From the NCBI GenBank assembly GCA_031256725.1, contig JAIRQE010000024.1, positions 1 to 32,000 on the forward strand: 32,000 nucleotides of DNA, read 5' to 3'. The notes beneath the pieces are model-generated. The model was given only the letters and a program-made list of their open reading frames with translations. It made no database searches and was not told where the DNA came from. Positions 10,447-15,774 of this stretch are shown piece by piece. The position numbers and the translations under genes are program-made. Position 1 is the first letter of the stretch. Each line of letters opens with the position of its first letter. The stretch is from Propionibacteriaceae bacterium. GTDB taxonomy: Bacteria; Actinomycetota; Actinomycetes; Propionibacteriales; Propionibacteriaceae.

Positions 10447-11103
10447 ATGATGACCTCGTACACTCGTACGCCCAAGAACCGGGCGGATCGCTCTCCTTGC
10501 AGAGCTTTGCCGACAAGGCCAAGGAAGGGAATTGCCCTCCTCGCTTTGGCAGCCGCCTTTCTGGCTGTGTCATCTGTGGTCACATTCGCGCTCTGGAAGA
10601 CCCAAGCCACCCAGGGAGCACTCACCCAATCGGGGACCATGGATTTTCGGCTCGGGGAATCCACCTGGTCCTGCCCCGAGCAAGAGATCAGCGGAACCTT
10701 CCCCAGCCTTGATCAACTCGTTCTTCAGCCCAAGCAGACGCTCATCATTCGCCAAGAGATCCTTGGAACCTTCCAGGGTGACAACCTGGCCATCAGGTTC
10801 GGCGTGAGATTCCCCAGCCTTCCTGAGGGTACGACCGGCTCATGGCATCTTGAGAGAAATAGTGTGCAGATCATTAGCCCTCGTGGCATCGAGGAGTCGG
10901 CCATCACTCGCGATGTCGTTGGTGTCGAAAACGGAACCTGGATCCTTCAGGCAACCCTGTCGATTCCAGCCGATGTCATCTGGGTTGACCCATCACAGCC
11001 GGTCGCAGAATCATCTCATATCCCTCTGGGAATCTTCACCATCACCGCTGAGCAGGAGCGCTGCGGGTTTGGGTTCCTGGATCCATGCGAGGAGTCATCA
11101 TGA
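10447..11103 (+). CDS. Exported protein with SipW-cognate-type (alternate) signal peptide, TasA/camelysin-like family, paralogue 1
   Basis: From ATG 10447 there is a basic N-terminus, then the hydrophobic core GIALLALAAAFLAVSSVVTFALWKTQA, followed by SGTMDFRL. The C-terminus is EQERCGFGFLDPCEESS. The start is uncertain (10414-10450). Confidence 0.7.
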   Translation: MMTSYTRTPKNRADRSPCRALPTRPRKGIALLALAAAFLAVSSVVTFALWKTQATQGALTQSGTMDFRLGESTWSCPEQEISGTFPSLDQLVLQPKQTLIIRQEILGTFQGDNLAIRFGVRFPSLPEGTTGSWHLERNSVQIISPRGIEESAITRDVVGVENGTWILQATLSIPADVIWVDPSQPVAESSHIPLGIFTITAEQERCGFGFLDPCEESS

Positions 11104-11807
11104 AGAGACTTCTCCTAGCAGCCCCGGTTGTTCTTCTTGCAGTCGTCCTTGCGCTTGGGAGCACGACGACCTTTGCCCTGTGGTCAACCGCAGTCTCCAC
11201 CCCACCTCTTGAAGTTCAACGCGTCGTGATCGGTTTCTCGGTTTCCACCACCCATGAAACAAAGGTGGCGAACTCCATGAAACCTCTGGAGACCACCTTC
11301 GGTCTAGAAGAAGCCGACATGATGCTCACCACTGGACCCAATGATCAAGGAGTGTTCACGGTCGCCGTACCGCTGAGTGTTTCCATGACAACCTCGGGCG
11401 GGTGTGGAATCGACTATAAGGTGACCCCCAGCAATCCTGACCCAGCGAGTGTCCTGGGCCACGGTGGAATCCCCCCCATCATCTTCCCCGTCTCAACCCC
11501 CCAAGAATGCACAATTGAGGCCGCCAAAGGCGCGAACCTCCACTCAGGGGGTGTGGTCGCAGGAATCGGACATGGCCAACCCGTCCAAGACACCAGAACA
11601 GACCACTGGTGCATTGTCTACCAAGCCAAGGGACAGAACTACATCAACACCGCAACTGCCGTGGGCAGAACCCAAACTGGTGAACTCATCACATCCCCCG
11701 CAGATGCTCAGAGCTCTTGGAGTGCCCATCTCTTTCCTGATCCATGGGTTGAACCATCAACCGTGGTGACCACCACACCAATCTTCGATTCGGGGTGCCC
11801 CATATGA
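11100..11807 (+). CDS. Exported protein with SipW-cognate-type signal peptide, paralogue 2
   Basis: ATG 11100 overlaps the previous stop (ATGA). The N-terminus is MKRLLLAAPVVLLAVVLALGSTTTFALWSTAV. Confidence 0.7.
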   Translation: MKRLLLAAPVVLLAVVLALGSTTTFALWSTAVSTPPLEVQRVVIGFSVSTTHETKVANSMKPLETTFGLEEADMMLTTGPNDQGVFTVAVPLSVSMTTSGGCGIDYKVTPSNPDPASVLGHGGIPPIIFPVSTPQECTIEAAKGANLHSGGVVAGIGHGQPVQDTRTDHWCIVYQAKGQNYINTATAVGRTQTGELITSPADAQSSWSAHLFPDPWVEPSTVVTTTPIFDSGCPI

Positions 11808-11877
11808 GCACTTCAACATCGATACATGGCTTCGGCCAACAATCGGGGTGCCCGCACCCCTCATTTAAGGAGAAATA

Positions 11878-13251: not shown

Positions 13252-14039
13252 TCAAGCGCTGGATTCGATTGGCGGCTCTATGCAGCCTGATGGCAGGGGT
13301 ACTTCTCACGGTTCCCTCAGTTGTCTTTGCCACGAACCAGACCCCCATGAATACCCCTGTGATCCCCATCATATGGGAGGAGACAACCATTCTCACCTGG
13401 GATGGGCGAACCCAGGCTGTAGGCGAGACCTCCACCCAACTCTCACATGTCATCATTCCAGGTGACCGCATCACACAGACTGGAACCATCATCAACGGTG
13501 GCCCATCCCCAGCAGATACAACTGTGGAAATCATCAATGTGGAGACTCGCCCAGACGAAGGAGCAACCTCGTCCTGCCTGGCGAATTATCTTCGACTCTT
13601 CTGGAACATCAACTCCAAGTCGGGAGACAATCTCTGGAGGGATGCCAAGCTCGGTGACCACGAGATCTCCCATTCCACAGGCTTCACCTTAGACAAGGGC
13701 GAGGATTTTCAGCTCACAGTTGGGGTGTACTTCCCCATCGAGTCCACAGGCGGTCAAGATTCAACCTGCCAACTCGCCTATTCCGTACGCATCACTATGA
13801 CTGAGCACACAGACCCGTCCCCAACTACTCAACCAAGCCAATCACCCACCTCTCCAGCATCGACCCCTCCGAACCCTCCAACAAACCCAGAAAAGCCCAC
13901 GTCGAAGCCGGGCCTCAACACCCCAACTGGTGGTGGGGTCCTCACGCAAGCATGGGCGAAGACCCTCGCAATCATCCTGGTGGGTTTGGGTCTCGTGGGC
14001 CTCTACTTCACTCGTCGAAAGGATGACTCTTATGGCTAA
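13248..14039 (+). CDS. Secreted beta-sandwich (TasA-like 'PGD') protein with Pro-rich stalk and C-terminal membrane/cell-wall anchor
   Basis: ATGA overlap with the peptidase gene. It has an ordinary Sec signal (LLTVPSVVFA-TNQ) and HVIIPGDRITQTGTIINGG. A P/T/S-rich spacer follows, then GLNTPTGGG, the hydrophobic stretch LAIILVGLGLVGLYF and RRKDD. Confidence 0.75.
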   Translation: MIKRWIRLAALCSLMAGVLLTVPSVVFATNQTPMNTPVIPIIWEETTILTWDGRTQAVGETSTQLSHVIIPGDRITQTGTIINGGPSPADTTVEIINVETRPDEGATSSCLANYLRLFWNINSKSGDNLWRDAKLGDHEISHSTGFTLDKGEDFQLTVGVYFPIESTGGQDSTCQLAYSVRITMTEHTDPSPTTQPSQSPTSPASTPPNPPTNPEKPTSKPGLNTPTGGGVLTQAWAKTLAIILVGLGLVGLYFTRRKDDSYG

Positions 14040-15774
14040 TTCGACAACCCCGAACAGGGTGAAGAACAACCGATCTCTGTGGAGTCGAATCCTCGGTGGT
14101 CTTCTCACCATTGGACTGATCATTTCAACCAGTTTTCTCCCCGGAGGAACTCCGAATTCTGCCCATGCTGAGGTCGATTCTGAAGCCAAAGTCACGGCCA
14201 TTACCCCAACCTCGGGACTCGTGGCAGGAGAGAACACTGTCACCATCACAGGCGAGGGATTCACCCAATCGCCTCGCTTCGTCACCGTGGACTATCTTCA
14301 ATTTGAGGAGAAAGGCGGAGCTTGGCCCACCATCAACACCAAGATTGAGATGACCTCAACAACCCGTCTCAACCTCGATTTCTCTATTCCTACTGACCTC
14401 TCCATCACCCATGTTGTCTTCTCATCGGGTGGATCATCAGAAATGAGGCTCTACATTGCTTCCCTCAATGCCTACTGGATGTATGGCTCAGGAACCATGA
14501 ACCTCGGCTATAAACCGATCGCTGATACCCCCACCAACACCCAGATCGGCAACGGATCCATTATCTGGAAGGGAAACACCCACGCGTACACACCATCTGG
14601 GTCAACTGGCTCATCGATCAAGATTGGTGGCGGAGCATCAGACAGTTTCAGCGGGAAGATCTTCGGCTTCAAGATTCACTCCGGGGCGAACGTAGCCCAG
14701 TTCATGGGCGTACCCACCTTTGATGCAAAGAACCAAGAATACGGGCTGCTGGATTCCGTCACCGGGGTCTTCTTGGGGAACTCTAACACCGGAGGCACGA
14801 TCACTGGCCCACCAGATTTCCAGCCACCATCACCTCCCCTAGCCTTCTATTTCACGAGTACGACAGACCCCGCGCAAAGCGCCGCGTGTACGAACATCAC
14901 CGTCGTGAACTCAACGACAGCGACCTGTGTCACACCATCATCGCCCTTGCGTCCAATCCGCTCAGGTATGGCCATAGTCTCCACCAAACCAGGGCCAGTG
15001 AACTCAGATTCAGTCACCTACGACTATCTGGGTGTGAAACCCACCATTTCTACGATCTCACCCGTGGAGGGCCCCATCAAAGGCGGTGGATCATGCGTGG
15101 TAACTGGACAGAATTTCGTCACACCTGTAGACAGCGCGGTAATCAACGGACTGGTCTTCATCGGCAACTTCGCAACATGGACAGAGAATGACCGCTCAGT
15201 TGTTGGGCTCTTCGACCCTAACTCGGGGCTTATGCAATCCTTCCCCTCGTCCCCAGATACTTGGGCAGTGATCAATGGGGCAAGGTACGACGCTCCCCCA
15301 ACGGAACTCTGGTTCGGCGACAAGAAGGCGACGGGAATCACGGTGAAAAACCTCACCACGTTGAACTGTGCCCAGATCCCAGCACATGATGCAGGGAACG
15401 CTGATCTCTCCCTCATTGTCGACGGTACACCCAGCGACCTCAAGAAAAACGGGTACACCTACCGCGCCCCTGGAGTATTGAAAGTCGAGAAACAGGGGTA
15501 CCTCTGCCCATCAGGCGTACAGGACCCCGAGCATCTATCCGAGTGCATTCTCATGGAAACAAATCACGCTATCATTAAAGGTGAGGCCATCGCATGGCTC
15601 TACTTGACAACCTATGTGGAGAAGAATACCAATGGTGACTCTGTGAACATTGGTGCCCCCGGACTCACGGATGTGGTGGTGACCGACGACAAAGAGGGCG
15701 AAGTCTGCAAGATCCCCAACCTCACAGTGAACGAACCCTACCCATGCATCGCTCGGGGAGTGCCAGGAATCTAA
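14032..15774 (+). CDS. Large secreted protein with IPT/TIG domains and a concanavalin/LamG-like lectin region (putative adhesin)
   Basis: AAAGGA lies 8 nt upstream of ATG 14032. The signal peptide is MANSTTPNRVKNNRSLWSRILGGLLTIGLIISTSFLPGGTPNSAHA-EV. IPT/TIG-like units are KVTAITPTSGLVAGENTVTITGEGF and KPTISTISPVEGPIKGGGSCVVTGQNF. The middle part ...SFSGKIFGFKIHSG... is LamG-like. Confidence 0.8.
   Translation: MANSTTPNRVKNNRSLWSRILGGLLTIGLIISTSFLPGGTPNSAHAEVDSEAKVTAITPTSGLVAGENTVTITGEGFTQSPRFVTVDYLQFEEKGGAWPTINTKIEMTSTTRLNLDFSIPTDLSITHVVFSSGGSSEMRLYIASLNAYWMYGSGTMNLGYKPIADTPTNTQIGNGSIIWKGNTHAYTPSGSTGSSIKIGGGASDSFSGKIFGFKIHSGANVAQFMGVPTFDAKNQEYGLLDSVTGVFLGNSNTGGTITGPPDFQPPSPPLAFYFTSTTDPAQSAACTNITVVNSTTATCVTPSSPLRPIRSGMAIVSTKPGPVNSDSVTYDYLGVKPTISTISPVEGPIKGGGSCVVTGQNFVTPVDSAVINGLVFIGNFATWTENDRSVVGLFDPNSGLMQSFPSSPDTWAVINGARYDAPPTELWFGDKKATGITVKNLTTLNCAQIPAHDAGNADLSLIVDGTPSDLKKNGYTYRAPGVLKVEKQGYLCPSGVQDPEHLSECILMETNHAIIKGEAIAWLYLTTYVEKNTNGDSVNIGAPGLTDVVVTDDKEGEVCKIPNLTVNEPYPCIARGVPGI

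Follow-up and report, generated by a model that had tools for sequence, protein, structure and literature searches.

The stretch of DNA analysed here (the window) covers 32,000 nucleotides of a Propionibacteriaceae bacterium (assembly GCA_031256725.1, contig JAIRQE010000024.1, positions 1 to 32,000), and six co-directional open reading frames (ORFs), g1 to g6, occupy positions 10447-15774 of its forward strand. They encode a signal peptidase I of the ER/archaeal (SipW) type, three proteins with the signals expected of its cargo, a protein with a sorting-signal-like tail and a secreted protein with TIG/IPT domains. On balance we favour the reading that this locus encodes a cell-surface fibre of the TasA-superfamily type which is matured by its own signal peptidase.

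The first gene, g1 (10447-11103, +, 218 aa), is a full-length paralogue of g3 and a putative minor cargo. It is followed by g2 (11100-11807, +, 235 aa), in which the shared signal and first-strand module is attached to an unrelated body, and by g3 (11878-12615, +, 245 aa), probably a member of the TIGR04089 family and the major subunit. The peptidase is encoded by g4 (12679-13251, +, 190 aa). The g5 protein (13248-14039, +, 263 aa) is composed of a signal peptide, a jelly-roll domain, a proline-rich linker and a C-terminal module (13917-14036, +) in which N-T-P-T-G-G-G is followed by a hydrophobic stretch and RRKDD, and the last gene, g6 (14032-15774, +, 580 aa), encodes the secreted TIG/IPT protein. 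The coupled junctions described in an earlier, sequence-only reading of this DNA are all present: ATGA overlaps join g1 to g2 at 11100 and g4 to g5 at 13248, and the ATG of g6 at 14032 lies 8 nt within the 3′ end of g5 (ATGGCTAA). Shine-Dalgarno sequences precede g3 (AAGGAG, strong) and g4 (AAGGGA).

The signal peptidase and its predicted cargo

The g4 protein passes the NCBIfam hidden Markov model (HMM) TIGR02228 with 88.7 bits (cut-off 51.85, E 3.6e-25) and the Pfam model Peptidase_S26 with 25.8 bits (gathering threshold 22.9). The three boxes read from the sequence alone were all found, LSGSMEP with Ser51, VTHRI with His95 and ITKGDSNN with GDSN at 113-116, and in an alignment of 23 g4 relatives from related loci G50, S51, M52, P54, H95, R96, G113, D114 and N116 are invariant. 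None of the 23 relatives has a lysine at the box-D position. The protein has the Ser/His arrangement, the catalytic role of these residues being taken from knowledge of the family. Its hydropathy profile displays an N-terminal and a C-terminal hydrophobic segment, as in SipW and two-transmembrane signal peptidases. The equivalog model of Bacillus SipW, NF046067, aligns with g4 from end to end at 79.2 bits, and since this is far under the cut-off of 190, g4 belongs to the SipW class yet is neither equivalog nor orthologue. It is genetically linked to the cargo genes and would cleave the signals of these neighbours.

The unusual N-termini on which the idea of a dedicated cargo was built are present in g1 (VVTFALWKTQA), g2 (TTTFALWSTAV) and g3 (STYALWSVQG), and the motif is followed by SGTMDFRL in g1 and by AGSMNLEV in g3, as had been noted for two of the cargo proteins. 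In a six-frame translation of the window the pattern [ST][FYW]A[LAF][WF] occurs exactly three times, at these three N-termini, and its conservation in homologues from more than 100 loci argues that it is not a product of chance. The common N-terminal module consists of a basic n-region, a hydrophobic core, T-[FY]-A/L-W (the slash marks the cut) and about 20 conserved residues. SipW-type cut sites are predicted at T46-F47-A48/L49 in g1, T24-F25-A26/L27 in g2 and T27-Y28-A29/L30 in g3.

A database search with g3 yielded 36 homologues at 28-49% identity, mostly metagenomic, and in the resulting alignment of 37 sequences TIGR04089 (exp_by_SipW_III) is matched by all (E<=0.01, best 9e-23) and TIGR04088 by 35 (best 1.2e-8). 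Assignment of the cargo to these two families is largely borne out; g3 itself, at 59.1 bits, stays marginally below the TIGR04089 cut-off of 60. The same model gives 17.8 bits for g1 (E 0.0026) and no match for g2, and TIGR04088, a 34-residue signal model, gives 10.3 bits for g2 (cut-off 19) and does not list g1 and g3. The blocks conserved in the g3 family are GGSTYALWS, ITAGDLxL, DVSxD, W-x-IVPGD, TLxGDNLVAxL and TLTQVR. The g3 protein is identical to the LBG99_08105 protein, encoded on a 48 kb contig, of a Propionibacteriaceae metagenome-assembled genome (MAG) at NCBI, where it is labelled 'hypothetical protein'; the JGI label is 'alternate signal-mediated exported protein', and homologues in related MAGs are named after the TIGR04089 and TIGR04088 families.

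Three paralogues had been proposed, and the relationship extends over the full length of g1 and g3 only. Family profiles of these two, those of g1 and g2 having been built from alignments drawn from related loci, match over 192 columns (hhalign 99.5%, E 1e-22; BLASTP E 1e-4), and both proteins have a GDNL box and a C-terminal cysteine pair, Q(E/V)RCG...C. The match between the g2 and g3 families (hhalign 94.8%) is restricted to 49 N-terminal columns, comprising the signal and about 20 mature residues, and in BLASTP of g2 against g1 and g3 the TFALWS motif is the sole match. The body of g2 differs, has W-C and Y-x-N-T-A-T-A motifs conserved in its own family alignment, and no Pfam family was found for it. 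With 49 aligned columns, g2 as a full paralogue of g3 was rejected. As g2 shares the N-terminus alone, the three are better described as one N-terminal module on two kinds of body. The possibility of a camelysin-like metalloprotease was also rejected, as HExxH was absent by eye from g1, g2 and g3.

Conservation of the cassette and the family of g5

The genomic context was compared in 112 related loci, which are phylogenetically clustered and in many cases apparently stem from a few related metagenome series, and the fractions given here are for that reason not independent counts. A cargo-seeded set of 32 loci was obtained with the g3 alignment against one genome per GTDB species, and its hosts are Propionibacteriaceae MAGs, Propionicicella, Cellulomonas, Xylanimicrobium, Microbacterium, Leucobacter and a Bifidobacteriaceae MAG. 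For the peptidase-seeded set, metagenome contigs were searched with the g4 alignment, the best 80 loci were kept and their ORFs were scanned with HMMs of the five families. We take many of the metagenome relatives to be from termite guts.

In 25 of the 32 cargo-seeded loci a g4 homologue lies immediately 3′ of the cargo on the same strand, a 26th has it farther along the contig, and two loci end at the contig edge. Seen from the peptidase, a cargo gene ends no more than 1 kb upstream in 44/48 loci with at least 1 kb of upstream sequence, g5 lies within 3 kb in 40/48 loci with at least 1 kb downstream, and 30 of the 31 loci with both flanks have at least one cargo gene. The anticipated co-occurrence of peptidase and cargo is evident from both directions, and this tight linkage, together with the TIGR02228 match and the invariant Ser and His, bears out the proposal of a dedicated SipW-class peptidase. 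The order g1-g2-g3-g4-g5 is the commonest (11 metagenome and 10 genome loci), and the overlap of peptidase stop and g5 start (ATGA or GTGA) is kept in several genera. Across Actinomycetes the genes for cargo, peptidase and g5 are conserved as a cassette on one strand, often with translational coupling.

Variants of this cassette were observed as well. The order g3-g4-g1-g2-g5 recurs in five metagenome loci (L092, L097, L100, L102, L107), in which the peptidase is thus not placed between g3 and g5 and g5 remains last. Some loci have two copies of g5 or none. One Propionibacteriaceae MAG (WREX01000002.1 / Ga0123354_10000112; loci L005/L007, the same as L039) has about 13 tandem g3-type paralogues with one peptidase and two g5-type genes, and such an array might serve heteropolymers or surface variation. 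Locus L024 has the arrangement g3-g5-g3 with no peptidase within 11.5 kb, and L063 and L072, on contigs of 3.5-8 kb, have a peptidase without recognisable cargo or g5. In Microbacterium thalli (L011, 10808-13426) a large LuxR-family protein (AAA_16 and GerE) is encoded directly 3′ of g5 and is possibly a dedicated regulator in that lineage; it is absent from the window, in which no regulator gene was found among the flanking ORFs scanned.

The features ascribed to g5, a 'PGD' motif, a proline-rich stalk and an anchor-like hydrophobic C-terminus, were all recovered, as IIPGD...INGGPS, the proline-rich stretch and a hydrophobic segment followed by RRK; the jelly-roll domain spans residues ~38-186. 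Its description as an anchored paralogue of the cargo did not survive: the profiles of the g5 and g3 families give an hhalign probability of ~1%, and g5 as a g3 paralogue was rejected at the sequence level. Read by eye, both g5 and g6 would have ordinary Sec signals (VVFA/T and SAHA/E, respectively). No Pfam or NCBIfam family was found for g5, which is annotated as hypothetical. A word-indexed search returned only g5 itself and its family profile added one relative, low-complexity words probably swamping the search; when 1.84 billion representative proteins were searched exhaustively, 134 relatives came up at E<=1e-3. A T-G dipeptide that precedes the hydrophobic segment and the basic tail varies little or not at all in this family, and canonical L[PA]x[TS]G motifs (such as LALTG, LAVTG, LPFTG, LPRTG and LPETG) occur in at least 44 of the 134 relatives. 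Class E (housekeeping) sortases of actinobacteria use LAxTG as their motif. The weak matches of the g5 profile in the PDB are to the sorting signals of LPXTG pilins. The NTPTGGG-type tail of the window is common to other Propionibacteriaceae-type members, several of which end in a conserved RRASVAQR, and the Microbacteriaceae/Cellulomonadaceae-type members have a long cytosolic CxxC...CxxC tail after an RRRR stop-transfer.

In seven loci (L004, L011, L016, L017, L018, L022, L027) this CxxC...CxxC tail of g5 is found together with a C-terminal cytosolic LRERELxLRERE repeat tail on the peptidase. The pairing hints at a cytoplasmic interaction or at regulation, and suggests that g4 and g5 both stay in the membrane and may interact. 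It bears on an alternative view of g5 as an accessory subunit of g4, a single-pass membrane protein with an extracytoplasmic beta-sandwich, in which case any fibre would be made of g1, g2 and g3. The stop/start overlap of g4 and g5, here and in several genera, and the position of g5 after the peptidase in 40/48 loci speak for such a role, and accessory subunits are found in the eukaryotic signal peptidase complex and are described for TasA-like loci (AbpX, Tafi) in a 2026 preprint. The g5 relatives, however, match neither DUF5305 nor any other accessory family, g5 is present twice or not at all in some loci, and the g5 profile aligns with the TasA core (71.5%, see below). Moreover, the near-invariant T-G and, in many relatives, the succession of canonical L[PA]xTG, hydrophobic segment and RRRR constitute a sortase signal, needless for a permanent membrane subunit. 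We consider the accessory role quite unlikely and prefer g5 as the surface anchor of a fibre.

A further observation concerns the boundary between anchor and cargo. In locus L003 (10073-11671, also representative P0092) a g5-type gene continues in frame into a second module with its own hydrophobic segment, SYALWS signal motif and g1/g3-type body, as a single ORF of 532 aa, which could represent either a read-through or a naturally fused anchor and cargo.

The last gene of the operon, g6, matches Pfam TIG in three stretches (48 bits, gathering threshold 20.9, E 1.2e-12), in agreement with the IPT/TIG modules first read in it; a LamG-like module, which had also been suggested, found no match at E<=1 to LamG or Laminin_G in Pfam and NCBIfam. 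The protein has eight cysteines and no anchor. Genes for similar TIG proteins are present in 6/112 related loci, there immediately 5′ of g1, and are absent elsewhere, so g6 is a lineage-specific accessory and not part of the core, with a possible role as an adhesin.

Likeness to TasA and a proposed fibre

The comparison with TasA employed a B. subtilis TasA query of which residues 28-261 were checked to be identical to PDB chain 8aur_A. Against the g3 profile only residues 5-50 of TasA align (31%, E 5e-4), with GGGTWA/AFND facing GGSTYA/LWS, and 8aur_A begins at A28, consistent with the aligned cut site. In TasA residues 28-38 form the donor strand and residues 39-61 rearrange upon polymerisation (PMC9674648). 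The segment shared by TasA, g1, g2 and g3 is thus the signal plus the strand-exchange region, which is suggestive, and recognition by the peptidase could explain it likewise. In the g3 alignment 19/37 sequences match PF12389 (Peptidase_M73, TasA/camelysin) at E<=1 (best 4.7e-5); the six matches inspected are all sub-threshold (12-18 bits, with 22.5 required) and cover profile positions 4-56 only.

The AlphaFold 2 (AF2) model of g3 (pLDDT 75.8, pTM 0.74) has a beta-rich, jelly-roll-like core, its first ~45 residues being disordered and low-scoring, and among 350,542 PDB chains searched with Foldseek the TasA fibre 8aur_A ranks first (E 4.2e-3, TM 0.28) and a FimA variant second. For g5 the model (pLDDT 81) displays a jelly-roll, then a low-confidence proline-rich linker and a C-terminal helix, and its Foldseek list includes Ena2A fibres at rank 35. 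The g5 family profile shows a weak similarity to the TasA core, with hhalign at 71.5% (E 3.6e-5) over 105 columns in which LKPGDKLTKDFQFENNGS lies opposite VPGDRvxRTlxVrNxGPS.

Several observations weigh against a TasA-type fibre. PF12389 has no match at E<=1 in any of the six proteins of the window, the g3- and g5-family profiles did not recover TasA among PDB sequences, and direct membership of the TasA family was rejected on these grounds. Between TasA and the g3 family the sequence similarity is confined to the signal and first strands, and their conservation might serve peptidase recognition alone. Foldseek gave no PDB match for g3 at E<=1e-3, and for g5 it returned generic jelly rolls, with TasA (5of1_B) at rank 20 (E 4.6e-3) and a TMq of 0.30 that is the highest of the list. 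No sortase gene was found among the scanned flanking ORFs of the window, the tail NTPTGGG is a non-canonical or degenerate sorting motif, and the cytosolic CxxC tails of some g5 relatives are atypical for sortase substrates. Four of the ~30 informative cargo-seeded loci (L024, L030, L031, L032) have flanks and no peptidase, and the clustering of the loci noted above belongs here as well. The likeness to TasA that was claimed for the locus is suggestive only: the N-terminal alignment and the first rank in Foldseek uphold it, but PF12389 is blank and the scores are weak.

The same limits form the case for cargo that does not polymerise. Here g4 would process g1, g2 and g3 into monomeric wall-associated or secreted proteins with binding, protective or antimicrobial functions, and g5 would be an independent wall protein. 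That the TasA link is confined to the ~50 signal-proximal residues, that the structural matches are not significant and that the NCBIfam names say only 'alternate-type signal peptide' all fit this alternative. On the other hand, jelly-roll bodies, paralogues and an anchored partner make up the architecture of proven donor-strand fibres, and g3-type genes are amplified in tandem, as is typical for structural or antigenic subunits. We regard monomeric cargo as unlikely, and give a similarly low probability to its corollary that the LWS... segment is only a recognition site for the peptidase, as a block conserved for ~20 residues past the cut in three otherwise dissimilar protein families goes beyond what signal peptidases usually read.

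The fibre we favour can be sketched by analogy with solved systems, from which fibre formation, polymerisation and donor-strand exchange are carried over. Cargo would be exported by Sec and remain tethered through its uncleaved signal until g4 cuts after T-x-A, freeing an LW(S)... N-terminus that is aligned with the donor strand of TasA. The freed strand may then enter the jelly-roll of the next subunit to give a non-covalent, donor-strand-complemented polymer, growth at the membrane being gated by signal cleavage as in the BsaA model. The g3 protein would be the major subunit, since its family is amplified in tandem (~13 copies in one MAG) and its ribosome-binding site is the strongest, with g1 as a minor paralogue. 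With its donor module on a foreign body g2 can donate a strand and need not accept one, and might act as a donor-only initiator or tip, like TapA in logic. The g5 protein has a jelly-roll without the SipW-type donor module and an LPXTG-like tail, and is for these reasons a candidate acceptor-only terminator which would receive the final strand and attach the fibre to wall or membrane, and g6 would be an optional TIG-domain adhesin or accessory. The roles first proposed are to be revised: g5 is a family apart with a sortase-type signal and not a paralogue of g3, g2 is the TapA-like component in logic, and g6 is an accessory.

The tapA-sipW-tasA operon of B. subtilis and the sipW-tasA/calY locus of B. 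cereus likewise combine an ER/archaeal-type peptidase with its substrates. In tapA-sipW-tasA, as here, the cargo signal ends in G-G-x-T-[WY]-A followed by a conserved stretch (the donor strand in TasA), the subunit is a jelly-roll, and an accessory protein has the N-terminal donor-like segment only (TapA there, g2 here). Unlike in Bacillus, the present cargo is not recognisable by PF12389 and is of three types instead of two, g4 reaches 79 bits compared to the 190 required, the host is actinobacterial, and the g5-like family with its LPXTG-like tail and coupling to the peptidase has no Bacillus counterpart. The sipW-bsaA-bsaB-bsaC operon of C. perfringens (PMC11580942) resembles our locus in that SipW is accompanied by multiple paralogues of TasA type and the last gene encodes a large adhesin-type protein (the VWA protein BsaC there, the TIG protein g6 here); some strains have an LPXTG-bearing paralogue, and in the published model SipW cleavage gates growth, which takes place at the membrane. 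The peptidase gene is first in that operon whereas it is fourth here, and secretion of BsaC needs type IV pilus genes, of which none were seen in the window.

BsaA also has an N-E-K isopeptide triad, and this leads to a third alternative in which the fibre is locked covalently, by BsaA-like intermolecular isopeptide bonds or by sortase-catalysed polymerisation. BsaA is itself a SipW-dependent TasA relative that gives isopeptide-locked oligomers, an LPXTG-type signal is part of the cassette, and the conserved C-terminal cysteine pair of g1 and g3 (QxRCG...C) could form disulfides. Yet g1, g2 and g3 have no sorting signal, and no gene for a pilus-type sortase was found among the flanking ORFs scanned in the window. 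The invariant residues of the g3 family are L, G, T, A, W, I, D, P, N, Q and R, with neither lysine nor glutamate, so the triad is not conserved and an N-E-K lock was rejected. We judge covalent locking to be very improbable compared to the non-covalent polymer.

Donor-strand-complemented jelly-roll filaments have been solved experimentally for AbpA, AbpX, Tafi and the Sulfolobus threads, whereas the present case consists of genes and models only. Besides a TIGR02228-type peptidase, their loci often encode minor subunits, an adhesin for the tip and an anchor of the membrane or LPXTG type. The AbpX-linked peptidases have ten transmembrane helices while g4 has two, and none of these families matches g1, g2, g3 or g5 in sequence. 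SpaA-type and chaperone-usher pili share with the proposed fibre the logic of tip, shaft and base, an LPXTG/LAXTG anchor at the base and a terminator without the polymerising element. They differ in that pilin motif, pilus sortase, chaperone and usher are missing here, where strand donation from the N-terminus is proposed to follow signal-peptidase cleavage.

These comparisons invite a tentative extension, which we consider possible though doubtful: a hitherto uncharacterised class of Actinomycete pili in which a non-covalent donor-strand polymer, each addition being timed by a dedicated Ser/His peptidase, would be capped and linked covalently to peptidoglycan by a sortase-processed g5 and carry the TapA-like g2 initiator and optional TIG adhesins at its tip. 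If true, such pili would be a hybrid of two Gram-positive principles of fibre building hitherto treated separately.

The sequence-only reading held that loci of this kind in actinobacteria have no known function. A full-text literature search found no paper mentioning TIGR04089 and none on these actinobacterial cassettes, and their members are indeed uncharacterised, but descriptions of TasA-superfamily operons that combine a signal peptidase, several paralogues and LPXTG anchors have appeared from 2022 on. Surveys with PF12389 picked up TasA homologues in Actinobacteriota (PMC9245690), and in the C. perfringens work BsaA/TasA operons are reported to contain several paralogues as well as LPXTG proteins, signal peptidases and sortases (PMC11580942). 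In the 2026 preprint the TasA cluster includes members from Actinomycetota; the loci described there have TIGR02228 peptidases with components for tip, LPXTG anchor and minor subunits, and LPXTG anchors are predicted to join AbpX fibrils. The locus is an uncharacterised actinobacterial example of the already described TasA-superfamily/BsaA/AbpX kind. What may be new are the unnamed g5 and g2 families and the conserved five-gene order; TIGR04089 and TIGR04088 model the signal-bearing cargo and are silent on g2 bodies, the g5 family, gene order and function.

Should the fibre model be true, TasA-superfamily fibres built by donor-strand exchange extend to Actinomycetes (Propionibacteriaceae, Microbacteriaceae, Cellulomonadaceae), and the five-gene cassette provides predicted roles of initiator, minor subunit, major subunit, maturase and anchor. 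It also suggests that a single fibre can rely both on sortase anchoring and on strand exchange gated by a signal peptidase. As the concept is already published for Firmicutes and archaea, the gain lies in breadth and architecture and not in principle.

Other features of the window

The genes that flank the operon are unrelated to it, with an M50-like peptidase and a DUF4405 ORF upstream, and a PNPOx-like protein, RlaP and ABC transporters downstream. The 1.3 kb immediately 5′ of the operon are gene-poor, with just short and mostly unassigned ORFs, and contain a perfect tandem duplication of a 20-nt unit (TGATCCTGACTGCCATCTCT) at 9605-9644. A scan of 8.5-16.5 kb for promoters, terminators and Rfam families gave nothing exceeding background, and no terminator-like site was found in it 3′ of g6.

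A tmRNA gene is located at 1873-2241 (+) and encodes the tag ANDVRTNFALAA. It is followed by ORFs for a TacA-like antitoxin (2859-3146), a GNAT (TacT-like) protein (3223-3618) and an HTH_17 (excisionase-like) protein (4020-4427), which look like remnants of an element integrated at ssrA. A direct repeat of the tmRNA 3′ end was not found within 1.8-18 kb, and such a repeat as island boundary was rejected.

Two copies of a non-coding element of 75-90 nt, 84-90% identical and 4254 bp apart, are present at 3826-3916 and 8080-8171 (+). Their consensus folds into a stem-loop in which six pairs are kept by one-sided G-U changes, with no double compensatory changes, and the element has no match in Rfam. 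A second pair of repeats (3686-3742 and 5134-5190) is 57 nt long and 75% identical. On the reverse strand, at 18238-20277, an ORF of 679 aa joins an N-terminal ABC-transporter ATPase to a C-terminal M20/M28 peptidase, an unusual fusion that adjoins genes for an ABC permease and an NMT1-type binding protein.

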